Virus record (IMG/VR): IMGVR_UViG_2681813321_000026
Span: 1 to 24,073 of that record
Strand: one strand, 5' to 3'
DNA length: 24,073 nucleotides
Source: a virus
Taxonomy: Duplodnaviria; Heunggongvirae; Uroviricota; Caudoviricetes
How positions within the stretch are numbered: position 1 is the first letter of the stretch; each line of letters begins with the position of its first letter. Below, piece by piece: positions 5,837 through 24,073 of this stretch. The position numbers and the translations under genes were made by a program. The notes under the pieces are model-generated. The model had not been told where the DNA came from and did not search any database. It saw nothing but the letters and a program-made list of their open reading frames with translations.

Positions 5837-5933
5837 ATAAAAACGTACTACTTCCCTAGTACACATGAGGAGTTGGGTCAGTTGGTTGCCAACCTGAACA
5901 GGCACCTTTAAGCCTGCTTCTGTTCGGGTACCT

Positions 5934-6242
5934 TTAAACCCGAAACAGTGAGGAGCGCGATTGCGATCCAGCCAGGGGAGGTTCGGCTGTATACCCCTGT
6001 AAAGCTCTGCCCTGATTTCTTACAAACAGGCGGAGCCTTGTGTTTGCTTCGTGCCTTGCTCTGTTCTCCTTGCGGAATGAAACAGGCTCAGCGTCAAAAG
6101 TGATTTCGTATACCTCCGCATATTTCAGGGCAACCTTCCGTCTCAGTGACGGAGGCAGCCCCTGTAACTGCTGCTGAATCCACTCTTCGTCTGCCTGGCA
6201 GTACCTAGATGGCATCTCTGTCTGAACGTAATTCTGGGACAT
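5934..6242 (-). CDS. Hypothetical protein (102 aa) in the cII/replication-initiator position
   Basis: ATG at 6242 with strong SD (GGGAGGTGA); overlaps the 3' end of the cro-like gene by 38 nt in another frame. No motif recognised. Confidence 0.55.
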   Translation of the reverse strand: MSQNYVQTEMPSRYCQADEEWIQQQLQGLPPSLRRKVALKYAEVYEITFDAEPVSFRKENRARHEANTRLRLFVRNQGRALQGYTAEPPLAGSQSRSSLFRV

Positions 6243-6492
6243 ACAAGCCCTTCACCTCCCCCGTGCGCGCTAAGCTTGGATGTGGAAAAAGCTCTGATAG
6301 GTCTGGCCGAAATTCATACGCTTGGATCTTTCCGTCGACAGCTGCAACCAATAACGGCACAAATTCTGGTGAAATCTTGTTCTTGCAGTTCAACCAATCG
6401 CAGACTGTTGACTGGGCCTTTCCGCATCGCTTGGCTAAGGCTTGCTGACTTCCAAGAATCTCAATAGCTTTCTCTATGGCTTTATGTTTCAT
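6205..6492 (-). CDS. Cro-like HTH regulator (Cro/CI-type, YdaS-like), 95 aa
   Basis: Start set to ATG at 6492 (MKHKAIEKAIEILGSQQALAKRCGKAQSTVCDW, HTH) with SD AGGAGA 7 nt upstream; ORF track start at 6543 is an upstream in-frame extension. Divergent from cI. Confidence 0.75.
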   Translation of the reverse strand: MKHKAIEKAIEILGSQQALAKRCGKAQSTVCDWLNCKNKISPEFVPLLVAAVDGKIQAYEFRPDLSELFPHPSLARTGEVKGLYVPELRSDRDAI

Positions 6493-6493
6493 A

Positions 6494-6578
6494 ATCGCAT
6501 CTCCTATTGAACGCATAATAACAACAGGAAAAGCGATATTCAACGTTAAACATAGAATATTTATCGGAAAGCCGATAA
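6494..6578. promoter_or_regulatory. OR-like divergent promoter/operator region between cro-like and cI genes
   Basis: Palindromic 14-mers ATCGCatctCCtAT (6494-6507) and ATCGGaaagCCGAT (6563-6576). Candidate minus-strand cro promoter TTGAAT-N17-TATTAT (-35 at 6543..6538, -10 at 6520..6515). Candidate plus-strand -10 TAGAAT at 6553-6558 with poor -35 (PRM-like). Confidence 0.5.
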
Positions 6579-6611
6579 ACTAGCCAAGATAGAGAGGGGA
6601 GGAAAATCGCA

Positions 6612-7304
6612 ATGACATTTTCAGAACGACTTGATTTAGCTATGCGCAACGCAAAATTTACGCAAGGTAGGCTGGCCAAAGAAGTGGGTATGGCTCAGTC
6701 CAGTGTTAATCAACTACTTAACAAAGCCAACGGTTCCAGAAAAACAGTCGAAATAGCAAAAGTTTTGGGCGTTAACCCGGAATGGCTCGCATCGGGTGTT
6801 GGCCCAATGGAAATCGTGACCTCTGCAGACTCACACCAAATACGTAACATTTCTGAAGATTGGGTTACTGATTCGTATGTCGTGGATGTTTTAGACATCA
6901 GATATAGTTGCGGACCTGGTAGTTATAACTCTGATTTTCCTGATATTGTCAGATCTATAGCGATAGAACCAGGATACGCATCAAGAGTTTTTGGCGGCAG
7001 ACCAGCATCAGCAATCAAAGCAATAAACGCCCACGGCGACAGTATGAAAGGCACAATAGACCCTGAAGACTTGGTATTTGTAGATGTATCAGTTCGCACA
7101 TTTAATGGTGATGGTATATACGCCTTTACATACTCTGGAACATCGCACATCAAAAGACTTCAAAAAATCAAAGATACTCTAACGGTGATATCTGACAACC
7201 CAGCTTACAAGGATTGGGCTATCGAACCGGAAGACTTCGAACAACTTCACATTGACGGAAAAGTAATTGTCAGTTGGCCTATGACACTACACCGTTTTGC
7301 ATAA
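6612..7304 (+). CDS. cI: CI-type prophage repressor (N-terminal XRE HTH, C-terminal S24 LexA-like peptidase domain)
   Basis: 230 aa; HTH QGRLAKEVGMAQSSVNQL; S24 catalytic motifs GDSM and downstream Lys; SD GGAGG upstream of ATG. Confidence 0.9.
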   Translation: MTFSERLDLAMRNAKFTQGRLAKEVGMAQSSVNQLLNKANGSRKTVEIAKVLGVNPEWLASGVGPMEIVTSADSHQIRNISEDWVTDSYVVDVLDIRYSCGPGSYNSDFPDIVRSIAIEPGYASRVFGGRPASAIKAINAHGDSMKGTIDPEDLVFVDVSVRTFNGDGIYAFTYSGTSHIKRLQKIKDTLTVISDNPAYKDWAIEPEDFEQLHIDGKVIVSWPMTLHRFA

Positions 7305-7322
7305 GCAAAAATCATTTAACCC

Positions 7323-7348
7323 GCCCACTCTTAAGTGGGCTTTTTTTT
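7323..7348 (+). terminator. Rho-independent terminator after cI
   Basis: Perfect 7-bp stem gcccact/agtgggc with 4-nt loop ctta followed by T8. Confidence 0.8.
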
Positions 7349-7356
7349 GGGAAAAA

Positions 7357-7398
7357 ATCGATAAACCGATTGACAGGTGAAATCGGTAAACCTATTAT
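7357..7398 (+). promoter_or_regulatory. PL-like promoter with two operator sites
   Basis: TTGACA (7370-7375), 17-nt spacer, TATTAT (7393-7398). Operator-like 14-mers ATCGAtaaaCCGAT (7357-7370, overlapping -35) and ATCGGtaaaCCtAT (7382-7395, overlapping spacer/-10), same family as the OR sites. Confidence 0.7.
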
Positions 7399-7447
7399 CT
7401 TGACATAGGTATCGAACTCACCAAAGCAATTATAGAGGATGAGAAAA

Positions 7448-7858
7448 ATGTCATCGTATATGGGATTACCAACAAATCAGCACGATGCTCTTGAGAATAT
7501 TCAGCTCTTAGTAGGGACTGGTGCACTACTGTATAGCAGCAATAACCCTGAGTTAATTGAACTTGCCAGCTCCATCCTGGCTGTAACTCAAAAATATAGC
7601 CTCACCGCGTCACGTTTATGCAAACAAAATTTAGCTATTAATTCCCAGAATCGGATTCGCACCCAACGCGAAACCTGCGGCTTAACAACCGCCGAACTCG
7701 CTAGGCTGCTCGATCTCGATGAAGAAATTATCATCCAGTGGGAGAGCGGAGAGTACGAACCAACCATCAGCATGCTTATCCCTCTGGCTAATGTTCTTGG
7801 CTGTGATCCAATGTTGTTATTGACTGATGCTTATAAACAAAATCAGGAGGAAGCATAA
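7448..7858 (+). CDS. Hypothetical protein with C-terminal XRE-family HTH (first gene of PL operon)
   Basis: Start set to ATG 7448 (SD GAGGA 8 nt upstream); track start 7439 has no spacing to the SD. C-terminal HTH LTTAELARLLDLDEEIIIQWESGEYEPTISMLIPLANVLG. Confidence 0.6.
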   Translation: MSSYMGLPTNQHDALENIQLLVGTGALLYSSNNPELIELASSILAVTQKYSLTASRLCKQNLAINSQNRIRTQRETCGLTTAELARLLDLDEEIIIQWESGEYEPTISMLIPLANVLGCDPMLLLTDAYKQNQEEA

Positions 7859-7859
7859 G

Positions 7860-8051
7860 ATGAAAATGTTCAAAGGCCTTACCAACGAACCGGAGACAAC
7901 TTTTCATCACATTGCCGTACTGCTTGAAGCGGGGTTAATCATTTCGGCTTCCGGTGATGAAGAATGTGATGAACTTTCGGATGATATCTTTTTACTGGCA
8001 CAACAATACGCCAGAAGCGCATGCGATGCATTTAAGGAGCAAAGAACATGA
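7860..8051 (+). CDS. Small acidic hypothetical protein (63 aa)
   Basis: ATG 7860 preceded by AGGAGG (9-nt spacing); track ORF 7827 is an in-frame upstream extension overlapping the previous gene. Confidence 0.55.
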   Translation: MKMFKGLTNEPETTFHHIAVLLEAGLIISASGDEECDELSDDIFLLAQQYARSACDAFKEQRT

Positions 8052-8239
8052 AAACTCCATTAAATATTCTTGAGGAAGTGGCAGCACAAATAAAAGAGAA
8101 TACATCAATGCTTGAATTTATATTTAAGAATTCGCCCGACTCAGGAGAGACAGACGATTATTTATGTTGCCTCATTCGCTCCATGAATAAAACCTGTGAA
8201 ATGGCTTACGCGTATATCGACACACTGCGCAACGAATAA
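8048..8239 (+). CDS. Small acidic hypothetical protein (63 aa)
   Basis: ATG overlaps stop of previous gene (ATGA coupling). Confidence 0.55.
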   Translation: MKTPLNILEEVAAQIKENTSMLEFIFKNSPDSGETDDYLCCLIRSMNKTCEMAYAYIDTLRNE

Positions 8240-8423
8240 AGAAAACTCAATAAACAATCACCCATAAAAACATAACGGTCTCTGGTCGGGAATTTCCACA
8301 ACCTGAAAATGGTGGTGATGCATGAAAAACAGAAGTGCTTATAAAACCGCATTATTAATGGCTAATGCAGGATACTGGTCAGTTGCAATACTGTTTCTCA
8401 GGAAAGCATACGGGAAATAACAA

Positions 8424-8783
8424 ATGACACATGAACCCATTAATACATATCGTCGCCGTATAGCTGTTGCGGCACTCCATCGAATAAAACGTAAAACAGG
8501 TGGTAATCTGCTTATTGTTGACCTTCCTGATGGGAACATTACGACCATAGAAATAACTGAACAGTTTATAAACCAGTTGCTGTTACGCTTCGAAGGTATT
8601 ACCCGTGGTGAATTGGGCCGGGTGGAGGGTGAAACCGAAATCCACACTGCATACCAGAATGCTATCGGGATTAATCAACATACTGAATACCTGACTGAAA
8701 CCGGAAAGTTAATTATAGACAACCTTTTTCAAGAGATTATTGATTACGCGAAAGAAAAATATATCAGCGGAGGAATTAACTGA
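8424..8783 (+). CDS. Hypothetical protein (119 aa)
   Basis: ORF with ATG start; stop overlaps start of next gene. No motif recognised. Confidence 0.5.
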   Translation: MTHEPINTYRRRIAVAALHRIKRKTGGNLLIVDLPDGNITTIEITEQFINQLLLRFEGITRGELGRVEGETEIHTAYQNAIGINQHTEYLTETGKLIIDNLFQEIIDYAKEKYISGGIN

Positions 8784-8998
8784 TGGCTAATTTATCCCCT
8801 GTATCTGTTGTGCACGAAAAAGTGCAGATCGTTATGACAATTGAAAATGGCCAAGTCACAGGTGTCTGCAAAGTCCGCGATGGCGAGCTGATTGCCAGCA
8901 TGGATACATTCATACGGCTGGCAGAAAGAGCGGGGTATCAGATAACAGCACCTGCTCAGGAGGAAACCGGTGGCATTAACAGCAACACGCATTCCTGA
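8783..8998 (+). CDS. Hypothetical protein (71 aa)
   Basis: ATG 8783 with GGAGGA 8 nt upstream, overlapping stop of previous gene. Confidence 0.55.
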   Translation: MANLSPVSVVHEKVQIVMTIENGQVTGVCKVRDGELIASMDTFIRLAERAGYQITAPAQEETGGINSNTHS

Positions 8999-9184
8999 GC
9001 GGATCCACCGGCAGGCATTGCAGGTCCTGTTGTTGTACCGATGCCGACGGATATTTCCGCATCGGATACAGCGCACCGGATATCTCAGTCTGAAGGTTAA
9101 CCGTCGCTGGCGGCTGTTATCGAAAGACGACGGCCGGAACTGGGAAGTAATGAGTCATGAACGTTATTCGGGAGAAATAAAGAA

Positions 9185-9577
9185 ATGATCGACAACCGCA
9201 CCGCCAGCACCATTGACCAGGCATTACAGAAACATGATACACCCGTCGGCCCGTTATTTTTTGTAACACGCCACGGAAGAACAAAAAAATGCCTCACCCG
9301 AAAAACGGCAATTCGTTACCTGGCATTCTTTATGACCACCCGCGCTTTTGAACGTTCAGGATTCCGACAACGCTATCCTGACAAGCGTTTTATCTTCAAC
9401 AGGAATGAGATATGGAAACGTGGAGAATCAACCACAGAGTATACCCGCGCACACCAGCGAACAATCAGACGACTGCGCAGACTCATCGCCAGGAAACAGT
9501 ATACAGAAAAATGGTTCAGAAAATATGACACATGGAGCGCCGGATATTACGAACTGATGGCAACAAAACCATTCTGA
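9185..9577 (+). CDS. Hypothetical basic protein (130 aa, Arg/Lys-rich C-terminus)
   Basis: ATG 9185 with GGGAGA upstream. No motif recognised. Confidence 0.5.
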   Translation: MIDNRTASTIDQALQKHDTPVGPLFFVTRHGRTKKCLTRKTAIRYLAFFMTTRAFERSGFRQRYPDKRFIFNRNEIWKRGESTTEYTRAHQRTIRRLRRLIARKQYTEKWFRKYDTWSAGYYELMATKPF

Positions 9578-9637
9578 CGTAAACGAAATTAACCATGACG
9601 CAATTAAATAAGGCAAGCCGAATACATCAGGAGGACC

Positions 9638-9826
9638 ATGAACATTTATTTCAGAATAGTTATATCACTGGCAATTATCACATGTATTTACGGATTAATC
9701 GTTCCGGCCCTCATATCAATGAAGGATACGGTAGCAGTGATTTCTGGCTTTGCTCTGGCGTGTCTGACCCCGCCCTGCATTTATGCCATTTATAAGGGTC
9801 TTTCTTTTTCTAAGGATAAAAGATGA
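9638..9826 (+). CDS. Small membrane protein (62 aa, two predicted TM helices)
   Basis: AGGAGGA upstream of ATG; two hydrophobic stretches; stop overlaps start of SPFH gene (ATGA). Confidence 0.55.
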   Translation: MNIYFRIVISLAIITCIYGLIVPALISMKDTVAVISGFALACLTPPCIYAIYKGLSFSKDKR

Positions 9827-10137
9827 AAAAATTACTTTTTGCTTTAGCCCTTGTTCTGCCGACCATTGGCCTTGTCGGTTGCGATCGCGTTGAGCCTGGT
9901 AATGTGGGCATCAAAGTAAACAAACTGGGCGACGATAAAGGCGTCGGTGAAGTGGTCGGTGTTGGGCGCTACTGGACGGGATGGAACACTGAGGTTTACA
10001 TCTTCCCGACCTTTAAGCAGATGAAGACCTACGATGATCCATTCAGTTTCCAGATGAGTGACGGTACAACCATCGGCTATCACATCGGCGTGGCCTACAA
10101 AGTTGATCCATCCAAAGTTACCACAGTCTTTCAGACC

Positions 10138-10167
<30 letters not shown>
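9823..10167 (+). pseudogene. Truncated copy of SPFH/band-7 lipoprotein gene (first 105 codons, then unrelated sequence after repeat boundary at 10137)
   Basis: Identical to the first 105 codons of the 275-aa gene at 19791-20618, then diverges and terminates after 9 foreign codons. Confidence 0.75.
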
Positions 10168-13550
<3,383 letters not shown>

Positions 13551-13576
<26 letters not shown>

Positions 13577-14096
13577 TCAGCAACCCCGGTATCAGTTCAT
13601 CCAGCGCGGCTGCTTTGTTCATGGCTTTGATGATATCCCGTTTCAGGAAATCAACATGTCGGTTTTCCAGTTCCGGAAAACGCCGCTGCACCGACAGGGG
13701 GAGCCCGTCGAGAATACTGGCAATTTCACCTGCGATCCGCGACAACACGAAAGTACAGAATGCGGTTTCCACCACTTCAGCGGAGTCTCTGGCATTCTTC
13801 AGTTCCTGTGCGTCGGCCTGCGCACGCGTAAGTCGATGGCGTTCGTACTCAATAGTTCCTGGCTGGAGATCTGCCTCGCTGGCCTGCCGCAGTTCTTCAA
13901 CCTCCCGGCGCAGCTTTTCGTTCTCAATTTCAGCATCCCTTTCGGCATACCATTTTATGACGGCGGCAGAGTCATAAAGCACCTCATTACCCTTGCCACC
14001 GCCTCGCAGAACGGGCATTCCCTGTTCCTGCCAGTTCTGAATGGTACGGATACTCGCACCGAAAATGTCAGCCAGCTGCTTTTTGTTGACTTCCAT
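13551..14096 (-). CDS. nu1: Terminase small subunit (lambda Nu1, 181 aa)
   Basis: Translation MEVNKKQLADIFGASIRTIQNWQEQGMPVLRGGGKGNEVLYDSAAVIKWYAERDAE... recognised as lambda Nu1; overlaps A start as in lambda. Confidence 0.95.
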
Positions 14097-14283
14097 TGTT
14101 CATTCCACGGCCAAAAACAGAGAAAGGAAACGACAAAGGCCCAAAAGTTCGTTTTCAGCACCTGTCGTTTCCTTTCTTTTCAGGGGGTATTTTAAATAAA
14201 AACATTAAGTTACGACGAAGAAGAACGGAAACGCCTTAAACCGGAAAATTTTCATAAATAGCGAAAACCCGCGAGGTCGCCGC

Positions 14284-14295
14284 CCCGTAGCCTGC
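14284..14295 (-). other. cosN cohesive-end site (12-nt GGGCGGCGACCT on minus strand); cosB lies between here and Nu1
   Basis: Plus strand aggtcgccgccc at 14284-14295 is the reverse complement of the lambda left cohesive end; the following 190 bp toward Nu1 matches the lambda left end from memory with a few substitutions. Confidence 0.85.
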
Positions 14296-14522
14296 CGGAT
14301 CGCCGGAAAGGACCCAATAAATGATAATAATTATCATTTATATAAATACCATCACACATCCCACGTACACCATAAAACCACGACAAATAATCAATTTTGT
14401 CCAAGTCATGCATTAATTGATCTGTGTCAACTTAACGTAAAGACATCTTAAGACAATACAAATCAGCAGCACTGAACACGGAAAAACACAATGTCATCAA
14501 AAAATAAAGCTTCCCAAACCAG

Positions 14523-14663
14523 ATGATTAATCAAATCCATATTGCCCTTGAACGTAAGGGATCGGGTAATTTTTCGGCATGGGTTATTGAAGCCTGCAGG
14601 AGAAGGCTGGCAACAGATGCAAAGCACCTGCGCCCGGCCAGCATGAAAAATAACGAGAAATGA
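14523..14663 (+). CDS. Small hypothetical protein (46 aa) in the cos-proximal right-end region
   Basis: ORF MINQIHIALERKGSGNFSAWVIEACRRRL...; resembles from memory the last small ORF before cos in lambda. An upstream ATG at 14491 is out of frame. Below track size cutoff. Confidence 0.3.
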   Translation: MINQIHIALERKGSGNFSAWVIEACRRRLATDAKHLRPASMKNNEK

Positions 14664-14795
14664 ACGTTCGGTTACAGGAACCGGTAGCTACTGTCTTCTA
14701 ACAATATTTCATCTTCATATCCGGCGAAACAAGACTTTACCCTGCAGGGATGTACTGAATAGCAACAGAGTGATAATTAACTTCTGATAAAATAA

Positions 14796-15122
14796 TCAGG
14801 GTGCTGAAGGACTAAAGATAAATGTTTTCTTCACGCCTTTACGCGGCTTGTCCTTCTCAAATCGCCATTTTGCCATCGCCTTTACAACCTGCTCATCAAA
14901 CAGATGGTGCGGCTCTGAACGGATAAACTCAATTCGGGTGACAGTACCATCAGCACCAATATCAAACTTCACATCAACCCGTCCCTTTATATAATTTGCC
15001 GCGGCATAGGCCGGATATTGTGGTAATGCCTTAACCAACTGTCGAGGCATATCTGTTTTATGTTGCGTACAGCCCATAACCAAAGAAGACAACAAAATAA
15101 TTAACGGAAGATTTCTTTTCAT
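14796..15122 (-). CDS. Lipoprotein consisting of a TonB C-terminal-like domain (about 108 aa)
   Basis: Signal peptide MKRNLPLIILLSSLVMGC with lipobox-like VMGC; mature region PQYPAYAAANYIKGRVDVKFDIGADGTVTRIEFIRSEPHHLFDEQVVKAMAKWRFEKDKP aligns closely with E. coli TonB C-terminal domain (PQYPARAQALRIEGQVKVKFDV...AMRRWRYEPGKP) from memory. Alternative upstream ATG at 15137 has no SD. Confidence 0.75.
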   Translation of the reverse strand: MKRNLPLIILLSSLVMGCTQHKTDMPRQLVKALPQYPAYAAANYIKGRVDVKFDIGADGTVTRIEFIRSEPHHLFDEQVVKAMAKWRFEKDKPRKGVKKTFIFSPSAP

Positions 15123-15138
15123 TTTTATTCCCGGCATA

Positions 15139-15158
15139 GATAAGAATAAGTCTTATTC
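15139..15158. promoter_or_regulatory. AT-rich perfect palindrome (GAATAAG-T-CTTATTC preceded by GATAA) overlapping the putative promoter of the TonB-like gene
   Basis: 7-1-7 perfect inverted repeat at 15144-15158; overlaps a minus-strand TAGAAT -10-like hexamer; partial resemblance to Fur-box GATAAT hexamers. Confidence 0.3.
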
Positions 15159-15761
15159 TAACAATGCAGCCCTGTCGGTCATCAATCCTCTGCTTAATGG
15201 CAATGACAATTATCCGACTTAAATCACAAATCAGACACATGACATAACAGAGTTTGCGAGGTAACACATCGTCCGGTTTCTTCCACCATCGCACCGGACC
15301 AGCGACCATGAGGGGACAACGCCGCGCTCCGTTTACGCGGTAAACCCCGGTGTGTATCGTTTTTGATTATCCCCGCACACTCTCGCAGAGGAGTCTCCCT
15401 GTCGGGCTGCGGTCTCTGTTAATGCAGGAATACGGCGACAATACCGCGCATGGATAATAAGGTCGCTCAACACACTGGCTGTAATTCAGCGGATACCATT
15501 CGGCATTTATCAGTATTCATCACACACTCAACGGTGAATTCTTCATGCGTGGCATTCACTTCATATGTTCGTGAATAACATTCAGTGCATTTACCTCTGA
15601 ACACCTCTTCAATCACTCTTCCAGGAAGAACCCTTTTCGTTTCTCAGCGCCTGAGCGCTTTGTACTACCTTGCTGATACGGGCGTTTTTTTAAATTGCGC
15701 CCTTAAGACAGTGATCTACTTAACCAATGGATCTCTCCTGTTGGAAAAGACCCTATTCCTG

Positions 15762-15804
15762 CCCCAACACCCAATCCCCCCTTACCCCCCTTACCCTCTT
15801 CCCC
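15762..15804 (-). other. Second copy of the C-rich/G-rich potential G-quadruplex tract
   Basis: Identical to 5794-5836. Confidence 0.4.
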
Positions 15805-15901
15805 ATAAAAACGTACTACTTCCCTAGTACACATGAGGAGTTGGGTCAGTTGGTTGCCAACCTGAACAGGCACCTTTAAGCCTGCTTCTGTTCGGGTACC
15901 T

Positions 15902-16210
15902 TTAAACCCGAAACAGTGAGGAGCGCGATTGCGATCCAGCCAGGGGAGGTTCGGCTGTATACCCCTGTAAAGCTCTGCCCTGATTTCTTACAAACAGGCG
16001 GAGCCTTGTGTTTGCTTCGTGCCTTGCTCTGTTCTCCTTGCGGAATGAAACAGGCTCAGCGTCAAAAGTGATTTCGTATACCTCCGCATATTTCAGGGCA
16101 ACCTTCCGTCTCAGTGACGGAGGCAGCCCCTGTAACTGCTGCTGAATCCACTCTTCGTCTGCCTGGCAGTACCTAGATGGCATCTCTGTCTGAACGTAAT
16201 TCTGGGACAT
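15902..16210 (-). CDS. Hypothetical protein (102 aa), copy 2
   Basis: Identical to 5934-6242. Confidence 0.55.
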   Translation of the reverse strand: MSQNYVQTEMPSRYCQADEEWIQQQLQGLPPSLRRKVALKYAEVYEITFDAEPVSFRKENRARHEANTRLRLFVRNQGRALQGYTAEPPLAGSQSRSSLFRV

Positions 16211-16460
16211 ACAAGCCCTTCACCTCCCCCGTGCGCGCTAAGCTTGGATGTGGAAAAAGCTCTGATAGGTCTGGCCGAAATTCATACGCTTGGATCTTTC
16301 CGTCGACAGCTGCAACCAATAACGGCACAAATTCTGGTGAAATCTTGTTCTTGCAGTTCAACCAATCGCAGACTGTTGACTGGGCCTTTCCGCATCGCTT
16401 GGCTAAGGCTTGCTGACTTCCAAGAATCTCAATAGCTTTCTCTATGGCTTTATGTTTCAT
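16173..16460 (-). CDS. Cro-like HTH regulator, copy 2
   Basis: Identical to 6205-6492. Confidence 0.75.
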   Translation of the reverse strand: MKHKAIEKAIEILGSQQALAKRCGKAQSTVCDWLNCKNKISPEFVPLLVAAVDGKIQAYEFRPDLSELFPHPSLARTGEVKGLYVPELRSDRDAI

Positions 16461-16461
16461 A

Positions 16462-16546
16462 ATCGCATCTCCTATTGAACGCATAATAACAACAGGAAAA
16501 GCGATATTCAACGTTAAACATAGAATATTTATCGGAAAGCCGATAA
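16462..16546. promoter_or_regulatory. OR-like promoter/operator region, copy 2
   Basis: Identical to 6494-6578. Confidence 0.5.
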
Positions 16547-16579
16547 ACTAGCCAAGATAGAGAGGGGAGGAAAATCGCA

Positions 16580-17272
16580 ATGACATTTTCAGAACGACTT
16601 GATTTAGCTATGCGCAACGCAAAATTTACGCAAGGTAGGCTGGCCAAAGAAGTGGGTATGGCTCAGTCCAGTGTTAATCAACTACTTAACAAAGCCAACG
16701 GTTCCAGAAAAACAGTCGAAATAGCAAAAGTTTTGGGCGTTAACCCGGAATGGCTCGCATCGGGTGTTGGCCCAATGGAAATCGTGACCTCTGCAGACTC
16801 ACACCAAATACGTAACATTTCTGAAGATTGGGTTACTGATTCGTATGTCGTGGATGTTTTAGACATCAGATATAGTTGCGGACCTGGTAGTTATAACTCT
16901 GATTTTCCTGATATTGTCAGATCTATAGCGATAGAACCAGGATACGCATCAAGAGTTTTTGGCGGCAGACCAGCATCAGCAATCAAAGCAATAAACGCCC
17001 ACGGCGACAGTATGAAAGGCACAATAGACCCTGAAGACTTGGTATTTGTAGATGTATCAGTTCGCACATTTAATGGTGATGGTATATACGCCTTTACATA
17101 CTCTGGAACATCGCACATCAAAAGACTTCAAAAAATCAAAGATACTCTAACGGTGATATCTGACAACCCAGCTTACAAGGATTGGGCTATCGAACCGGAA
17201 GACTTCGAACAACTTCACATTGACGGAAAAGTAATTGTCAGTTGGCCTATGACACTACACCGTTTTGCATAA
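16580..17272 (+). CDS. cI: CI-type prophage repressor, copy 2
   Basis: Identical to 6612-7304. Confidence 0.9.
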   Translation: MTFSERLDLAMRNAKFTQGRLAKEVGMAQSSVNQLLNKANGSRKTVEIAKVLGVNPEWLASGVGPMEIVTSADSHQIRNISEDWVTDSYVVDVLDIRYSCGPGSYNSDFPDIVRSIAIEPGYASRVFGGRPASAIKAINAHGDSMKGTIDPEDLVFVDVSVRTFNGDGIYAFTYSGTSHIKRLQKIKDTLTVISDNPAYKDWAIEPEDFEQLHIDGKVIVSWPMTLHRFA

Positions 17273-17290
17273 GCAAAAATCATTTAACCC

Positions 17291-17316
17291 GCCCACTCTT
17301 AAGTGGGCTTTTTTTT
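17291..17316 (+). terminator. Rho-independent terminator after cI, copy 2
   Basis: Identical to 7323-7348. Confidence 0.8.
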
Positions 17317-17324
17317 GGGAAAAA

Positions 17325-17366
17325 ATCGATAAACCGATTGACAGGTGAAATCGGTAAACCTATTAT
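17325..17366 (+). promoter_or_regulatory. PL-like promoter with operators, copy 2
   Basis: Identical to 7357-7398. Confidence 0.7.
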
Positions 17367-17415
17367 CTTGACATAGGTATCGAACTCACCAAAGCAATTA
17401 TAGAGGATGAGAAAA

Positions 17416-17826
17416 ATGTCATCGTATATGGGATTACCAACAAATCAGCACGATGCTCTTGAGAATATTCAGCTCTTAGTAGGGACTGGTGCACTACTGT
17501 ATAGCAGCAATAACCCTGAGTTAATTGAACTTGCCAGCTCCATCCTGGCTGTAACTCAAAAATATAGCCTCACCGCGTCACGTTTATGCAAACAAAATTT
17601 AGCTATTAATTCCCAGAATCGGATTCGCACCCAACGCGAAACCTGCGGCTTAACAACCGCCGAACTCGCTAGGCTGCTCGATCTCGATGAAGAAATTATC
17701 ATCCAGTGGGAGAGCGGAGAGTACGAACCAACCATCAGCATGCTTATCCCTCTGGCTAATGTTCTTGGCTGTGATCCAATGTTGTTATTGACTGATGCTT
17801 ATAAACAAAATCAGGAGGAAGCATAA
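17416..17826 (+). CDS. Hypothetical protein with C-terminal XRE HTH, copy 2
   Basis: Identical to 7448-7858. Confidence 0.6.
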   Translation: MSSYMGLPTNQHDALENIQLLVGTGALLYSSNNPELIELASSILAVTQKYSLTASRLCKQNLAINSQNRIRTQRETCGLTTAELARLLDLDEEIIIQWESGEYEPTISMLIPLANVLGCDPMLLLTDAYKQNQEEA

Positions 17827-17827
17827 G

Positions 17828-18019
17828 ATGAAAATGTTCAAAGGCCTTACCAACGAACCGGAGACAACTTTTCATCACATTGCCGTACTGCTTGAAGCGG
17901 GGTTAATCATTTCGGCTTCCGGTGATGAAGAATGTGATGAACTTTCGGATGATATCTTTTTACTGGCACAACAATACGCCAGAAGCGCATGCGATGCATT
18001 TAAGGAGCAAAGAACATGA
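17828..18019 (+). CDS. Small acidic hypothetical protein (63 aa), copy 2
   Basis: Identical to 7860-8051. Confidence 0.55.
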   Translation: MKMFKGLTNEPETTFHHIAVLLEAGLIISASGDEECDELSDDIFLLAQQYARSACDAFKEQRT

Positions 18020-18207
18020 AAACTCCATTAAATATTCTTGAGGAAGTGGCAGCACAAATAAAAGAGAATACATCAATGCTTGAATTTATATTTAAGAATT
18101 CGCCCGACTCAGGAGAGACAGACGATTATTTATGTTGCCTCATTCGCTCCATGAATAAAACCTGTGAAATGGCTTACGCGTATATCGACACACTGCGCAA
18201 CGAATAA
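18016..18207 (+). CDS. Small acidic hypothetical protein (63 aa), copy 2
   Basis: Identical to 8048-8239. Confidence 0.55.
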   Translation: MKTPLNILEEVAAQIKENTSMLEFIFKNSPDSGETDDYLCCLIRSMNKTCEMAYAYIDTLRNE

Positions 18208-18391
18208 AGAAAACTCAATAAACAATCACCCATAAAAACATAACGGTCTCTGGTCGGGAATTTCCACAACCTGAAAATGGTGGTGATGCATGAAAAACAG
18301 AAGTGCTTATAAAACCGCATTATTAATGGCTAATGCAGGATACTGGTCAGTTGCAATACTGTTTCTCAGGAAAGCATACGGGAAATAACAA

Positions 18392-18751
18392 ATGACACAT
18401 GAACCCATTAATACATATCGTCGCCGTATAGCTGTTGCGGCACTCCATCGAATAAAACGTAAAACAGGTGGTAATCTGCTTATTGTTGACCTTCCTGATG
18501 GGAACATTACGACCATAGAAATAACTGAACAGTTTATAAACCAGTTGCTGTTACGCTTCGAAGGTATTACCCGTGGTGAATTGGGCCGGGTGGAGGGTGA
18601 AACCGAAATCCACACTGCATACCAGAATGCTATCGGGATTAATCAACATACTGAATACCTGACTGAAACCGGAAAGTTAATTATAGACAACCTTTTTCAA
18701 GAGATTATTGATTACGCGAAAGAAAAATATATCAGCGGAGGAATTAACTGA
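18392..18751 (+). CDS. Hypothetical protein (119 aa), copy 2
   Basis: Identical to 8424-8783. Confidence 0.5.
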   Translation: MTHEPINTYRRRIAVAALHRIKRKTGGNLLIVDLPDGNITTIEITEQFINQLLLRFEGITRGELGRVEGETEIHTAYQNAIGINQHTEYLTETGKLIIDNLFQEIIDYAKEKYISGGIN

Positions 18752-18966
18752 TGGCTAATTTATCCCCTGTATCTGTTGTGCACGAAAAAGTGCAGATCGT
18801 TATGACAATTGAAAATGGCCAAGTCACAGGTGTCTGCAAAGTCCGCGATGGCGAGCTGATTGCCAGCATGGATACATTCATACGGCTGGCAGAAAGAGCG
18901 GGGTATCAGATAACAGCACCTGCTCAGGAGGAAACCGGTGGCATTAACAGCAACACGCATTCCTGA
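18751..18966 (+). CDS. Hypothetical protein (71 aa), copy 2
   Basis: Identical to 8783-8998. Confidence 0.55.
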   Translation: MANLSPVSVVHEKVQIVMTIENGQVTGVCKVRDGELIASMDTFIRLAERAGYQITAPAQEETGGINSNTHS

Positions 18967-19152
18967 GCGGATCCACCGGCAGGCATTGCAGGTCCTGTTG
19001 TTGTACCGATGCCGACGGATATTTCCGCATCGGATACAGCGCACCGGATATCTCAGTCTGAAGGTTAACCGTCGCTGGCGGCTGTTATCGAAAGACGACG
19101 GCCGGAACTGGGAAGTAATGAGTCATGAACGTTATTCGGGAGAAATAAAGAA

Positions 19153-19545
19153 ATGATCGACAACCGCACCGCCAGCACCATTGACCAGGCATTACAGAAA
19201 CATGATACACCCGTCGGCCCGTTATTTTTTGTAACACGCCACGGAAGAACAAAAAAATGCCTCACCCGAAAAACGGCAATTCGTTACCTGGCATTCTTTA
19301 TGACCACCCGCGCTTTTGAACGTTCAGGATTCCGACAACGCTATCCTGACAAGCGTTTTATCTTCAACAGGAATGAGATATGGAAACGTGGAGAATCAAC
19401 CACAGAGTATACCCGCGCACACCAGCGAACAATCAGACGACTGCGCAGACTCATCGCCAGGAAACAGTATACAGAAAAATGGTTCAGAAAATATGACACA
19501 TGGAGCGCCGGATATTACGAACTGATGGCAACAAAACCATTCTGA
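19153..19545 (+). CDS. Hypothetical basic protein (130 aa), copy 2
   Basis: Identical to 9185-9577. Confidence 0.5.
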   Translation: MIDNRTASTIDQALQKHDTPVGPLFFVTRHGRTKKCLTRKTAIRYLAFFMTTRAFERSGFRQRYPDKRFIFNRNEIWKRGESTTEYTRAHQRTIRRLRRLIARKQYTEKWFRKYDTWSAGYYELMATKPF

Positions 19546-19605
19546 CGTAAACGAAATTAACCATGACGCAATTAAATAAGGCAAGCCGAATACATCAGGA
19601 GGACC

Positions 19606-19794
19606 ATGAACATTTATTTCAGAATAGTTATATCACTGGCAATTATCACATGTATTTACGGATTAATCGTTCCGGCCCTCATATCAATGAAGGATACGGT
19701 AGCAGTGATTTCTGGCTTTGCTCTGGCGTGTCTGACCCCGCCCTGCATTTATGCCATTTATAAGGGTCTTTCTTTTTCTAAGGATAAAAGATGA
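19606..19794 (+). CDS. Small two-TM membrane protein (62 aa), copy 2
   Basis: Identical to 9638-9826. Confidence 0.55.
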   Translation: MNIYFRIVISLAIITCIYGLIVPALISMKDTVAVISGFALACLTPPCIYAIYKGLSFSKDKR

Positions 19795-20618
19795 AAAAAT
19801 TACTTTTTGCTTTAGCCCTTGTTCTGCCGACCATTGGCCTTGTCGGTTGCGATCGCGTTGAGCCTGGTAATGTGGGCATCAAAGTAAACAAACTGGGCGA
19901 CGATAAAGGCGTCGGTGAAGTGGTCGGTGTTGGGCGCTACTGGACGGGATGGAACACTGAGGTTTACATCTTCCCGACCTTTAAGCAGATGAAGACCTAC
20001 GATGATCCATTCAGTTTCCAGATGAGTGACGGTACAACCATCGGCTATCACATCGGCGTGGCCTACAAAGTTGATCCATCCAAAGTTACCACAGTCTTTC
20101 AGACCTACCGCAAAGGCGTGGACGACATTACCGACACCGACCTGCGCCAGAAGATAGCCGACGCACTCAACCGACTGGCCAGCAAAATGACCACCGACAA
20201 ATTTATCGACGGCGGCAAGTCTGAGCTGCTGGATGCAGCTCTTAAAGACATTCAGGAAGAAATGACGCCCATCGGTATTCAGGTAATGAGCCTCTCATAT
20301 GTGGGTAAGCCGGAGTACCCACCTACTGTTATCGACAGCATTAATGCCAAAGTCACGGCGAACCAGAAAACCCTGCAACGCGAGCAGGAAGTAAAACAGC
20401 GCGAAGCGGAAGCCAACATGTTGCGCGCGGAAGCTGCCGGACAGGCAGATGCGATTCGCACAAAAGCCCAGGCCGAAGCCGATGCTATTCGTTTACGCGG
20501 TGAAGCTCTGCGCCAGAACCCCGGTGTTATGGAGCTGGAAGCCATCAACAAGTGGAACGGTACACTGCCGCAATACATGACCAGCGGTGCCAACACACCA
20601 TTTATTCAGGTTAAGTAA
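19791..20618 (+). CDS. SPFH/band-7 (HflC/stomatin-like) domain lipoprotein, 275 aa
   Basis: Lipoprotein signal MKKLLFALALVLPTIGLVGC (lipobox LVGC); SPFH-like core and C-terminal Ala/Glu/Gln/Arg-rich coiled-coil segment (REQEVKQREAEANMLRAEAAGQADAIRTKAQAEADAIRLRGEAL) typical of HflC/QmcA-type proteins; SD AAGGA upstream. Confidence 0.8.
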   Translation: MKKLLFALALVLPTIGLVGCDRVEPGNVGIKVNKLGDDKGVGEVVGVGRYWTGWNTEVYIFPTFKQMKTYDDPFSFQMSDGTTIGYHIGVAYKVDPSKVTTVFQTYRKGVDDITDTDLRQKIADALNRLASKMTTDKFIDGGKSELLDAALKDIQEEMTPIGIQVMSLSYVGKPEYPPTVIDSINAKVTANQKTLQREQEVKQREAEANMLRAEAAGQADAIRTKAQAEADAIRLRGEALRQNPGVMELEAINKWNGTLPQYMTSGANTPFIQVK

Positions 20619-20661
20619 TACATATGCCCGGTATTACACGCCGGGCTGTCTGGAGATAAAA

Positions 20662-21411
20662 ATGAATATTGTAACCATCAACAACAAACAGTTTCCGGTA
20701 ATCGAATATCGCGGTCAGCGTGTTGTGACATTTGCAATAATTGATGACGTCCACCAGCGCCCGGAAGGTACCGCCCGTGCTGCGTTTAACCGCAACCGTT
20801 CTCACTTTATCGAAGGGGTGGATTTTCTTGAAATGACTGCGGACGTAATACGTACGGAGTCACTTTCTGATGCCTTTGCCGCGCGAACTGCCAAAGGGAT
20901 CATTCTTTTCGAGTCTGGTTACCTGATGTTGACGAAGCCTTTTAACGATGCTCTTGCATGGCAGGTTCAGCGCGAACTGGTTAACAGCTATTTCCGAACT
21001 CACGCGCCGCTGACGGAAATGGAGATGATCGCTGCAATGGCCGCCGATGCCGTTCGCCAGCAGAAGCGCCTGAGTCATGTTGAAGAGAAGATCGAAACGG
21101 TCACCAAAGCTGTGGAGAACATCAAACGCGGCACAATGCGCACCGGATATGTCGGTTACCGCCAGGTGGTAGCCAAAAGCGGAATGAGTGACGCCAAGTG
21201 TCGGAATCTGGTCAACGCCTACCACATCCCTACCGACACGCACGAATTTATGACTCCGGACGGTCTGTTGTCTCGCAGGGCTGTCGTCGAGCTTGAGACA
21301 TTTATGGCGGCGTTCCACCAAATGATGTCAGAGGCTGAACCACGCGGCACACGCTGGTATCACCCGAAGATGGGGCTTTTTCAGGTAATCGGATGGGAGG
21401 ATAAAGCATGA
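20662..21411 (+). CDS. Phage antirepressor-like protein with N-terminal ORF6N/KilA-N-type domain (249 aa)
   Basis: Start set to ATG 20662 (SD GGAG 6 nt upstream; track start 20587 is an upstream extension overlapping the SPFH gene end). N-terminus MNIVTINNKQFPVIEYRGQRVVTFAIIDDVHQRPEGTARAAFNRNRSHFIEGVDFLE resembles ORF6N antirepressor domains. Confidence 0.6.
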   Translation: MNIVTINNKQFPVIEYRGQRVVTFAIIDDVHQRPEGTARAAFNRNRSHFIEGVDFLEMTADVIRTESLSDAFAARTAKGIILFESGYLMLTKPFNDALAWQVQRELVNSYFRTHAPLTEMEMIAAMAADAVRQQKRLSHVEEKIETVTKAVENIKRGTMRTGYVGYRQVVAKSGMSDAKCRNLVNAYHIPTDTHEFMTPDGLLSRRAVVELETFMAAFHQMMSEAEPRGTRWYHPKMGLFQVIGWEDKA

Positions 21412-21976
21412 TCATCCAGTCAAAACTTATTCGCGCCGCTCTGGTGTGCGCTGCTAAAAACGACGTTCGTTATTACCTGAACGGTCTTCACATCACGCCA
21501 AAACATATTGAGGCAACCAATGGTTTCGTAGCACTGCGCATGACTCACGGCATCCGGACGAAGAAAAACATCATTGTCCAGTTCGAAGGTGGCGTCCCGG
21601 CCAAAGCCGAAACGACAGAGCTGATTTTTAGTAAAGAGCCGATCCTGTTCATCGCGACCAGTTTCAGCGCCGGCTGTCCATTACCGGCATTAAATTGGTG
21701 GACGGTTGTTTTCCGGATTTGGAACGCATCATTCCGAAAAAATTTGACCTCTGTACACACCCGGTGATCCAGGCGGGTTACCTGAGTTATCCAGAGAAGA
21801 TGTTTGGTCGTGAGCGTAAATTTATTCCCGTCCAGTTACGTTCCTCCGGTGACGGGCAAGCGGTCAGAATTCAGTTTGATTCCATCATCAACTCAATGTA
21901 TGGCAATCCTGAATTTGTTGTGATGCCTTGTCGTGATCATGGCGATTTCAATGTGGCTCAGGAGCATCCGGAATGA
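21408..21976 (+). pseudogene. DnaN (beta sliding clamp) domain II-III-like gene interrupted by a -1 frameshift near 21672-21676
   Basis: Frame-0 ORF 21408-21767 begins MIIQSKLIRAALVCAAKNDVRYYLNGLHI...ATNGFVALR (compare E. coli DnaN RLIEATQFSMAHQDVRYYLNGM...ATDGHRLAV). Frame-2 ORF open from 21635 to 21976 reads ...IKLVDGCFPDLERIIPKK...VVMPCRD (compare DnaN SKLVDGRFPDYRRVLPK...VVMPMRL). No SD or ATG for the second frame; ATG 21408 overlaps the antirepressor stop. Confidence 0.5.
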
Positions 21977-22011
21977 AAATCGAATACCAGGACGCCGCAG
22001 GAGGTGAATCA

Positions 22012-22095
22012 ATGAGCTGGCCTGATGCAATCGTAACTCTGGGGGTGGTATTCGCAGTAGCGTTTGTTGTGTTCTCAATTTGTCGATGGGGATAA
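22012..22095 (+). CDS. Small hydrophobic peptide (27 aa; 40 aa if started at coupled ATG 21973)
   Basis: Strong SD AGGAGGT 7 nt upstream of ATG 22012; translation MSWPDAIVTLGVVFAVAFVVFSICRWG is a single TM helix. An in-frame ATG at 21973 overlaps the stop of the upstream gene. Confidence 0.35.
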   Translation: MSWPDAIVTLGVVFAVAFVVFSICRWG

Positions 22096-22099
22096 CCAC

Positions 22100-22342
22100 A
22101 TGTTCGCTTTGATTCAACGCGGTCAGATATACACGGACAGAGCCGGATACCCCGTGGTGATTACTCGCATCACTGAGCACTCAGTGTTCTTTCGACGGAT
22201 GGACGGACGATCCGGGCGGGTACGCATTGGTGAGTTAAACTGCCTGTTCGAACATATTGACCACCAGGAGTACCGCAAAATTCTCGCGGACACTGAGCAG
22301 GAAAAGCACCTGAAAAAATTACGAGCCATAAAAAGGAAGTAA
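22100..22342 (+). CDS. Hypothetical protein (80 aa)
   Basis: ATG 22100 with GGGGA 7 nt upstream; track start 22064 is a TTG upstream extension. Confidence 0.5.
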   Translation: MFALIQRGQIYTDRAGYPVVITRITEHSVFFRRMDGRSGRVRIGELNCLFEHIDHQEYRKILADTEQEKHLKKLRAIKRK

Positions 22343-22345
22343 AGA

Positions 22346-22480
22346 ATGAATAAAGCATTTGAACGATGGGTCCACCAGCGTTACGGCAATCGCTATGACC
22401 TGACGCGAGATGTTGACGGCTTCTACTGTCGTGAAGTTGTGAAGCGAATGTTTGAAGTGTGGTGCCACTGCCGTGGATGA
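22346..22480 (+). CDS. Hypothetical small Cys-containing protein (44 aa)
   Basis: ATG 22346 with AAGGAAG upstream; MNKAFERWVHQRYGNRYDLTRDVDGFYCREVVKRMFEVWCHCRG; below track size cutoff. Confidence 0.35.
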   Translation: MNKAFERWVHQRYGNRYDLTRDVDGFYCREVVKRMFEVWCHCRG

Positions 22481-22498
22481 AAATTTTATGAGGTTGGC

Positions 22499-22753
22499 AT
22501 GCAGACAATCATCTATCAGATAACCCCCAGCAAATGGTGTACGGAGAGAGTCCTCATTGCATCAACAGGGCTAAAGCCTGGCACCATTGAGCGGGCAAGA
22601 AGAAAGTCATGGATGCAGGGAAAAGAATACCGCCATTACGCTGTAGAAGGTGATCCGGGGCACTACAGTGAATGCCTGTACAACATCGAAGAAATTATGC
22701 GATGGATCGAAAACCAGAAACAACCAGGTGCCAAAAATGCAAGTTCCGGTTAA
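22499..22753 (+). CDS. Excisionase-like protein (84 aa)
   Basis: Immediately upstream of the integrase gene, same strand; motif pattern W..E.L...TGLKPGTIERARRKSWMQGKEYRH resembles prophage excisionase-like (DUF1233-type) proteins. Confidence 0.55.
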   Translation: MQTIIYQITPSKWCTERVLIASTGLKPGTIERARRKSWMQGKEYRHYAVEGDPGHYSECLYNIEEIMRWIENQKQPGAKNASSG

Positions 22754-22786
22754 CCTGTTAATGCTCCTGGACGTCTGGGAGGTTTA

Positions 22787-24073
22787 ATGAGTAACGCATC
22801 ATACCCGACAGGCGTTGAAAACCATGGAGGATCACTCCGTATATGGTTTCACTATAATGGCAAACGTGTCAGAGAAAACCTCGGTGTTCCTGACACAGCC
22901 AAAAACCGGAAGATCGCTGGTGAACTTCGCACTTCCGTTTGTTTTGCAATCAGAATGGGGAGTTTCGACTACGCCGCGCAGTTCCCTAATTCCCCTAACC
23001 TGAAACACTTTGGTCTGGGAAAAAGAGAGATAACCGTTAAGGCACTTTCGGAAAAATGGTTGGACCTTAAGAAAATTGAGATTTGTGCGAATGCACTTAA
23101 TCGTTACCAGTCAGTAATTAAAAACATGTTGCCTATGTTGGGTGAGAAAAAACTGGTTTCATCCATAACAAAAGAGGATTTACTTTTCGCAAGGAGAGAT
23201 TTGTTGACCGGTTACCAAAAGCTTTCTAATGGAAAGATTTCTTCCATAAAAGGGCGCTCAGTGGTCACAGTAAACTACTATATGACAACCATAGCTGGAA
23301 TGTTTCAATTTGCAACAGATAATGGTTATACCTCAGGAAACCCATTTAACGGTCTGGCACCCTTAAAAAAGTCCAAGGTAAAACCAGATCCTCTCACCCG
23401 TGACGAATTTATTCGTTTTATTGAAGCTTGCCGTCATCAACAAACAAAAAACCTGTGGATTCTCGCTGTATACACGGGTATTCGTCACGGGGAGCTGGTA
23501 TCGCTGGCATGGGAAGATATAGATCTTAAAGCAAGGACTATAACCATCCGTAGGAATTATACAAAACTTGGCGAATTCACTCCACCAAAAACCGATGCTG
23601 GCACCGGAAGGACAATTCATCTGGTTCAACCAGCTATTGATGCTCTTAAAAGTCAGGCGGAAATGACCATGCTTGGAAAGCAACATTCTGTAGAGGTAAA
23701 GCAGAGGGAATATGGGAGAAGTACTGTGCATAAATGCACTTTTGTTTTTAGTCCTCAGGTAATAAAACAGCGGCAGTTTTCCGGACCGCACTATAAGGTT
23801 GACTCCATCAGGGAGTCATGGACAAGTATCTTAAAACGCGCAGGTCTGAGACACAGAAAATCGTACCAATCCAGGCATACTTATGCATGCTGGTCACTTG
23901 CCGCTGGAGCTAATCCTAGTTTTATCGCAAGCCAGATGGGCCACACAAACGCACAAATGGTATTCAATGTTTACGGAGCATGGATGAAAGACAACAATCA
24001 CGAACAGATAGAACTCCTTAACAAAAGACTATCTGAAAGTGTCCCATGTATGCCCCATAAGAAAGCTGGGTAA
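22787..24073 (+). CDS. int: Tyrosine-type site-specific integrase (428 aa)
   Basis: SD GGGAGG upstream; C-terminal catalytic region with RHGEL, SRHTYACW, HTNAQMVFNVYGAW (catalytic Tyr) typical of tyrosine recombinases. Last prophage gene before the expected attachment site beyond the window. Confidence 0.9.
   Translation: MSNASYPTGVENHGGSLRIWFHYNGKRVRENLGVPDTAKNRKIAGELRTSVCFAIRMGSFDYAAQFPNSPNLKHFGLGKREITVKALSEKWLDLKKIEICANALNRYQSVIKNMLPMLGEKKLVSSITKEDLLFARRDLLTGYQKLSNGKISSIKGRSVVTVNYYMTTIAGMFQFATDNGYTSGNPFNGLAPLKKSKVKPDPLTRDEFIRFIEACRHQQTKNLWILAVYTGIRHGELVSLAWEDIDLKARTITIRRNYTKLGEFTPPKTDAGTGRTIHLVQPAIDALKSQAEMTMLGKQHSVEVKQREYGRSTVHKCTFVFSPQVIKQRQFSGPHYKVDSIRESWTSILKRAGLRHRKSYQSRHTYACWSLAAGANPSFIASQMGHTNAQMVFNVYGAWMKDNNHEQIELLNKRLSESVPCMPHKKAG

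Follow-up and report, generated by a model that had tools for sequence, protein, structure and literature searches.

The bacterial sliding clamp DnaN is a three-domain protein, 366 amino acids (aa) long in Escherichia coli (P0A988; PDB 1MMI, 2POL), and a shorter form of it is known. Beta* (dnaN*), a UV-induced 26-kDa product of internal translation of dnaN that covers approximately domains II and III, was reportedly described by Skaliter, Paz-Elizur and Livneh (J Biol Chem, 1996); it is said to keep all of domain III and to assemble, according to a proposal, into a trimeric ring supporting processivity. Here, we analyzed positions 21408-21976 of a 24,073-nucleotide (nt) stretch of caudoviricete virus DNA (IMG/VR record IMGVR_UViG_2681813321_000026, positions 1 to 24,073; this whole stretch is termed the window in the following), where two overlapping reading frames, offset by -1, jointly encode a clamp-like protein of 189 aa, the mini-clamp. 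We hold it to be highly probable that this locus is a pseudogene, inactivated by deletion of a single G, of a DnaN-derived phage protein belonging to PHROG 3007, the intact members of which, as we infer, bind clamp-binding motifs and form no ring.

Like beta*, the mini-clamp is truncated at its N-terminus, starts at about DnaN residue 135 and keeps the partner-binding pocket, but half of domain III and one of the domain II helices are gone. Compared to DnaN itself, it is encoded by a phage accessory gene, lacks domain I and the dimer-interface regions as well as helix two of domain II and the initial half of domain III, and scores 18-21 bits against TIGR00663. The processivity factors of herpesviruses, such as herpes simplex virus 1 (HSV-1) UL42, human cytomegalovirus (HCMV) UL44, Kaposi's sarcoma-associated herpesvirus (KSHV) PF-8 and Epstein-Barr virus (EBV) BMRF1, are monomeric or C-shaped, but they consist of two complete domains, belong to the PCNA lineage and to viruses of eukaryotes, and work with a cognate viral polymerase, for which no gene was seen in the stretches examined here. 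Coliphage N4 gp8 reportedly targets the delta subunit. With this protein and with Gp168 of Staphylococcus phage Twort (PDB 7EVP), the mini-clamp shares the proposed logic of interfering with the host clamp or clamp-loader network; however, Twort Gp168 and N4 gp8 are unrelated folds that bind the clamp or its loader, whereas the mini-clamp would mimic the binding site of the clamp. The closest relatives are the PHROG 3007 proteins themselves (Salmonella phage Skate gp41, Yersinia phage P400 gp35, Shigella phage EP23 gp08 and RefSeq WP_046880261), which are of the same family and have the same length and motifs as the restored window protein. The window copy differs from them in being frameshifted; in addition, the E. 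coli prophage clade carries F or S at the equivalent of DnaN H175, and the gene neighborhoods in the virulent phages differ.

The three DnaN-like motifs on which a sequence-only reading of the locus had been based are all present and all align with E. coli DnaN: DVRYYLNG is identical to residues 150-157 at 8 of 8 positions, KLVDGCFPD aligns with residues 235-243 and VVMPCR with residues 360-365. Searches with single sequences were suggestive (E 0.02 for PF02767, 2e-4 to 8e-4 for TIGR00663 and 0.015 for clamps in the PDB), and the single-sequence matches to the DnaN models of Pfam and NCBIfam all stayed below threshold, so that a family profile was required. An intact orthologue reached 15.4 bits where the gathering threshold of PF02767 and PF02768 is 27 bits, and two intact orthologues scored 18.5 and 20.6 bits against TIGR00663, the equivalog cut-off of which is 137.65 bits; among 60 diverse members, an E value of 0.01 or lower was obtained by 10 for PF02767 and by one for PF02768. 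A profile of 22 family members matched E. coli-type beta clamps in the PDB with an E value of 4.3e-12, which is far from what chance would give, and comparison with DnaN of E. coli K-12 by hhalign gave a probability of 98.2% (E 4e-14), or 98.5% (E 1.5e-15) when 60 more diverse members were included. An AlphaFold2 (AF2) model was made of P0001, an 81% identical orthologue and not the E. coli protein itself (pLDDT 86, pTM 0.83), and the top 50 PDB matches of this model in Foldseek were all bacterial beta clamps. Thus, profile, hhalign and structure all upheld the similarity to DnaN that formal alignment had been expected to decide, the homology is formally supported, and the ancestral mini-clamp protein derives from DnaN.

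By megablast, the mini-clamp gene was found in 60 of 5,426 complete E. coli genomes. It has a length of 570 nt in 58 of these carriers, which supplied the intact orthologue that the sequence-only reading had proposed to search for, of 571 nt in DETEC-S792 and of 569 nt in E110019 only. DNA alignment with the intact 570-nt genes of VL40 and STEC799, both of which translate without interruption into 189 aa, showed that a single G is missing in the window between 21644 and 21645 (intact GATCGCTG, window GATCCTG). The shift had been placed around 21672-21676, and these orthologues move it about 30 nt upstream. Native codons 1-79, the N-terminal part of the domain II-like fold that corresponds to DnaN 136 onward by orthologue alignment and hhalign, occupy 21408-21644; codons 80-189 and the stop codon, covering the end of the domain II-like part, the linker and the half-domain III, now lie in the -1 frame (21645-21976). 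The two adjacent frames that had been described are therefore real: the present open reading frame (ORF) starting with ATG (21408-21767) encodes 119 aa, 79 native and 40 out of frame, and is overlapped by a -1-frame ORF of 93 aa with a TTG start (21695-21976). A typical PHROG 3007 member is a single uninterrupted ORF of about 170-215 aa, and the window copy is split at 21644/21645. The out-of-frame sequence replaces residues 80-119, and with them the final domain II strands and the G-x-F-P-D…R-V linker, which contributes to the pocket, are lost. Because the shift destroys these strands and the linker with its equivalents of P242, R246 and V247, the pocket is unable to form in the window copy, which was shown to be unable to make the native protein. 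In RefSeq, the E110019 copy is listed as 'hypothetical protein, frameshifted', and 'beta clamp domain-containing protein' is the name given to that of VL40.

Three options had been offered for the split gene, namely that it is inactivated, mis-sequenced or expressed as two pieces. A sequencing or assembly error, with the gene being intact in the organism, might be suspected from the occurrence of the 569-nt form in just one of the 60 complete genomes and from several other flagged pseudogenes in the E110019 prophage, which could hint at a low-quality assembly: its portal and Q genes are frameshifted, and its terminase and TerB genes contain internal stops. However, two of these further pseudogenes are internal stops and not indels, and there is no homopolymer at the lesion site 21644/21645. 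The exact 119-aa product occurs on 203 contigs in NCBI, ENA and Logan assemblies, compared to 873 and 71 contigs for two intact alleles. In all 8 of the 8 fetched loci that carry this product, which come from different assemblies, the 569-nt sequence was identical, and it was located beside three integrase/attachment modules with an integrase of 392 aa, an integrase of 428 aa beside mlrA or an integrase of 437 aa beside a DUF72 gene. As the allele is identical in 8 of 8 loci and its product present on 203 contigs, the lesion is an inherited mutation and not a sequencing error, the probability of which we regard as close to nil. The 569-nt allele is one haplotype, inherited and spread by descent and prophage mosaicism; window positions 18408-24073 are 100% identical to contig CYBF01000001.1 of GCA_001285025.1.

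An allele that is this common (203 contigs) and occurs across prophages with different integrases might also still be functional, either by programmed -1 frameshifting to the 189-aa protein or by cooperation of the 119-aa product with a re-initiated piece of 70 aa. Such a piece is available: a GTG-initiated ORF of 70 aa (21764-21976), which equals native residues 120-189 and is a called protein on 200 contigs, has its start codon joined to the TGA of the 119-aa ORF as GTGA, and the genes of the operon are generally translationally coupled. Re-initiation at GTG 21764 could therefore be possible in principle. Against frameshifting, no X XXY YYZ motif is present at 21640-21650, in line with the reported absence of a slippery heptamer, the shift is not conserved, and the orthologues are single uninterrupted ORFs. 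A two-piece protein would carry out-of-frame residues 80-119 and lose the conserved G100-F-P103-D linker together with the last domain II strands. Besides the deletion, P146S (codon 146, 21842-21844) is the sole amino-acid change private to the window allele; the position affected is near-invariant, with conservation of at least 90% across the family, and the change would fit relaxed constraint. Finally, independent inactivations elsewhere suggest that the gene is dispensable in lysogens. We consider retained function highly unlikely and favor inactivation, as indicated by the single-G deletion compared to the intact orthologues, the frameshifted label in RefSeq and the inheritance of the allele.

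One of these independent inactivations is found in Salmonella phage Fels-1, where a deletion fused the N-terminus of an ORF6N gene out of frame to mini-clamp residues ~80-188. The remnant in S. Typhimurium LT2 (STM0896 / STM0896.2n; L026:2196-2830) bears P174R within the VVMPCR motif and is an independent inactivation of the same ORF6N/mini-clamp gene pair. A second frameshift allele of the mini-clamp (P0041), in other E. coli and Shigella assemblies, has an A6 run at 21737-21742 shortened to A5, and a single sequencing project (ERR10497xxx-ERR10498xxx) is the source of every sampled contig with the exact P0041 sequence. In a Klebsiella allele (P0053), the break falls within this run, too; the run could be a mutational hot spot or a site of homopolymer sequencing error in that project. 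For two intact E. coli alleles, dN/dS was about 0.29, calculated from few sites.

As the window thus holds an ordinary pseudogene, the main interest shifts to the family and its possible role as a pocket-only mimic of the clamp. Residues 1-111 of the mini-clamp align to DnaN 136-250, i.e. to domain II and the inter-domain linker, with a short loop replacing the second helix of domain II. A C-terminal sub-profile (residues 112-180, 145 diverse members) matched DnaN 316-366 with 20.4 bits and an E value of 1.9e-8 for that single comparison, pairing 'eigfNaeYL…MPmRl' with 'EIGFNVSYV…MPMRL' of DnaN, and positions 71-121 of the 121 positions of PF02768 matched the homologue of phage Skate. First colinear alignments had put phage residues 112-150 onto DnaN 251-289 in the first half of domain III; this placement was dismissed, as the sub-profile prefers 316-366 and gives -3.1 bits for a first-half placement (275-296), with which the PF02768 match agrees. 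According to these alignments, the mini-clamp consists of domain II without helix two, followed by the linker and, of domain III, the C-terminal half (beta-alpha-beta-beta-beta). The original proposal of a 190-aa protein colinear with DnaN domains II and III accordingly stands with regard to a DnaN homologue, of 189 aa, that includes domain II, but of domain III only the last half (DnaN 316-366) is represented.

Domain I and DnaN 251-315, including I272/L273, are absent from the family alignment, and with them both sides of the head-to-tail dimer interface, to which domain I and, in domain III, the region of I272/L273 contribute. Mutation of I272/L273 turns beta monomeric (PMC11139829). The canonical three-domain DnaN has about 366 aa; the mini-clamp has 189 aa and, according to AF2 secondary structure, about 1.5 domains, and the model contains two helices, where two full domains would supply four. 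It had been suggested that a truncated clamp could poison host replication, which might occur if it entered assemblies with DnaN that are mixed and non-closable; dominant-negative effects are common among truncated subunits of oligomers. However, as both dimerization surfaces of DnaN are absent from the family, poisoning of this kind seems very remote.

An intact orthologue with 99% DNA identity matched phrog_3007 with an E value of 2.9e-64 (residues 1-179 on positions 3-188 of the 190 of the profile). A profile search of 1.84 billion representatives returned 964 family clusters at an E value of at most 1e-10, counted at 50% identity, and the length was 170-215 aa in nearly all of the 150 best clusters. 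By tblastn, homologues were detected in 201 phage genomes, with hosts that include Salmonella, Escherichia, Klebsiella, Vibrio and Burkholderia, and BFVD holds many short viral models with TM values of 0.7-0.8. PHROG 3007 is labeled 'RusA-like Holliday junction resolvase', and this label has been copied into many RefSeq phage annotations (e.g. NC_016566 EP23p08, NC_021563). As no similarity of its members to RusA appeared in the searches run here, the label is apparently wrong and the members are DnaN-derived. In GenBank, the pieces of the window allele are named 'putative DNA polymerase III beta subunit, central domain protein'. A literature search on short, truncated or phage DnaN-like proteins found no paper dedicated to the short phage beta-clamp family; locus and family are known to databases (as RefSeq pseudogene, in PHROGs and as 'beta clamp domain-containing protein'), but the family is uncharacterized.

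The gene in the window belongs to the early-left operon of a lambdoid E. coli prophage and lies between a CI-type repressor gene and xis/int. Prophages of E. coli, Limnobaculum and Providencia carry the mini-clamp in such a repressor-to-xis/int operon near an ORF6N/Bro-N gene, which does not always adjoin it, and in the virulent siphophages Skate, P400 and EP23 it stands isolated among structural and lysis genes. This context bears on whether the intact members are true processivity clamps that close into a ring, like the trimers of PCNA and T4 gp45 or the one proposed for beta*, and serve phage replication. In favor of this view are the unambiguous clamp fold, the basic character of the protein (pI ~9.1-9.3, ~21.4 kDa) and the annotation of homologues by depositors as 'DNA polymerase III beta subunit'. 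Nevertheless, a protein of about 1.5 domains with two of four helices, missing domain I and DnaN 251-315 with I272/L273, is poorly suited to such a ring; in the virulent siphophages, the gene is located outside the replication module, no gene for a clamp loader or for Pol III alpha was present in the stretches examined, and the prophage copies are situated among accessory early-left genes. A role as processivity clamp is, accordingly, improbable.

What the family has retained is the pocket. Conservation was determined over 145 family sequences, mostly representatives of 50%-identity clusters, in which 19 positions are conserved to at least 80%; the residues of the pocket for clamp-binding motifs were taken as given in PMC11139829. 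Eleven of the 19 positions are pocket residues. The equivalents of R152, L155, T172, G174, H175, P242, Y323, M362, P363 and R365 are conserved at 0.83-0.99 and that of N320 at 0.68. Five of the other eight conserved positions (D150, Y154, G157, G239 and D243) are at most two residues away from a pocket residue in the DnaN sequence. Positions that are both at least 80% conserved and identical to E. coli DnaN make up 10 of the 17 mapped pocket positions, compared to 6 of the 63 others (Fisher p = 5e-5). At the level of sequence, the pocket with its subsites I and II is conserved.

Together, the architecture and the pocket point to the following model. Domain II, the linker and the half-domain III, which are retained, are the parts of the clamp that build the hydrophobic cleft docking motifs of the Q-L-x-L-F type, and the lost elements, domain I and the first half of domain III, are those that make the head-to-tail ring interface. 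Intact members would hence be basic 21-kDa modules of clamp fold that do not use the canonical ring interface. [quoted passage not shown] The earlier suggestion that a truncated clamp could redirect or sequester clamp-binding factors would fit the conserved pocket. Monomeric beta binds the clamp-loader delta subunit far more tightly than dimeric beta does, which may make the clamp loader an attractive target. We give this view, in which intact members are non-ring pocket modules that present the clamp cleft and sequester or recruit motif proteins, at best an even chance.

Several points weigh against the proposed interpretation of the locus and its family. The 569-nt allele persists in many strains, and the GTGA overlap could allow production of the C-terminal 70 aa; total loss of every activity in the window allele is therefore less than proven. 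Intact members may assemble into rings or filaments of a non-canonical type. Within DnaN itself, too, the pocket is the surface with the highest conservation, and its enrichment among the conserved positions may partly reflect homology detection. Finally, the pocket of the E. coli prophage clade is non-canonical, with F or S at H175, Q at N320 and C at M364.

The mini-clamp gene, its two neighboring genes and all of their elements lie on the plus strand. Native codons 1-79 include DVRYYLNG (21462-21485) and ATNGF (21513-21527). The part now in the -1 frame contains the inter-domain linker KLVDGCFPDLERIIPK (21692-21739) and, in the half-domain III, QAGY (21770-21781), the equivalent of DnaN N320-Y323, and FVVMPCR (21914-21934). 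Upstream, the gene for an ORF6N-domain antirepressor-like protein of 249 aa occupies 20662-21411 (Pfam PF10543 ORF6N, E 1.6e-12; phrog_1726 'anti-repressor', E 6.8e-70; a RefSeq CDS in E110019). Its TGA (21409-21411) overlaps the ATG of the mini-clamp (21408-21410) as ATGA, and a Shine-Dalgarno sequence, GGGAGG, can be read 7 nt 5' of this ATG (21395-21400), in agreement with the translational coupling that had been noted for the two genes. Downstream, the TGA of the mini-clamp overlaps, again as ATGA, the ATG of a hydrophobic ORF of 40 aa (21973-22095), for which relatives in RefSeq carry an annotation. The DUF4222 gene, located a short distance downstream of the mini-clamp, is interrupted in E110019 by an IS3-family element (NZ_CP035751.1 3510077-3511290), for which 22146-22148 in the window is the empty site.

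The C-terminal domain of the ORF6N protein was present in 469 E. coli genomes, compared to 60 with the mini-clamp, so that pairing of the two genes is frequent in prophages but not obligate. The C-terminal tail, …RGTRWYHPKMG[L/I]FQVIGWE(D)K, is strongly conserved (window 21020-21411; L009:4317-5072; L011:4664-5416) and retained across exchanges of the N-terminal DNA-binding domain (ORF6N, Bro-N, Rha family), and it is also found on P1-like plasmids. Within this tail (…HPKMGLFQVIGWE), 'KMGLF' resembles the clamp-binding motif AMSLF of the delta subunit, and the tail may be a clamp-binding one. That it is a dedicated ligand of the mini-clamp is unsupported, given the occurrence of the domain in 469 genomes, on proteins of the Rha family as well and on P1-like plasmids. 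At 90% identity, the mini-clamp proteins of 189 aa fall into one cluster with a 249-aa ORF6N protein as its representative, probably due to a fused or bridging sequence, and the cluster of the query was thereby masked in the homologue search.

Further upstream in the same operon, the window encodes a ParE-family toxin-like ORF of 72 aa (18938-19156) and an SPFH/Band-7 lipoprotein of 275 aa (phrog_200; 19791-20618), which are typical accessory or exclusion-type cargo; none of the three proteins, mini-clamp, ORF6N and SPFH, matched a PADLOC defense-system profile. A perfect (100%) direct repeat of 4,495 bp (5643-10137 and 15611-20105) carries the prophage immunity/early-left segment including a LexA-family CI-type repressor (6612-7304 and 16580-17272). 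Its copies flank a region (10138-15610) with large minus-strand ORFs of 535 and 641 aa, and the first copy ends inside the SPFH gene, where ORF 9823-10167 begins as the SPFH N-terminus. The repeat reflects either prophages arranged in tandem or nested, or an artifact of assembly; the complete E110019 genome has only one copy of the repeated segment. In two virulent siphophages, the neighbors of the mini-clamp (EP23 gp07, L008:5571-6335, and Skate gp43, L006:3921-4730) are a protein with Nmad5, 'nucleotide modification associated domain 5' (E 2e-58), and a DNA-binding protein of the ParB-HTH/KorB type, which possibly hints at a link to DNA-modification modules.

The window copy itself matters little, being a dead accessory gene of a prophage that RefSeq already flags as a frameshifted pseudogene. 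For the family, the analysis corrects the 'RusA-like Holliday junction resolvase' label of PHROG 3007 and reveals a very common phage protein that keeps the partner cleft of the sliding clamp and has shed the parts that make the ring. More tentatively, and with the odds rather against it, the short phage beta clamps may constitute an unrecognized class of host-takeover proteins, employed by temperate and virulent phages of many Proteobacteria to reprogram or halt DNA replication and repair in the host; that the gene has been inactivated independently several times in prophages, as in the window allele, the A6-run allele and the Fels-1 remnant, would then reflect a burden that leaky expression places on the lysogen. 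The cleft by which the sliding clamp binds its partners is a current antibiotic target. If the intact members indeed bind clamp motifs, they would represent a natural decoy for, and a probe of, the clamp interactome, and a case of phage mimicry of a host hub protein.

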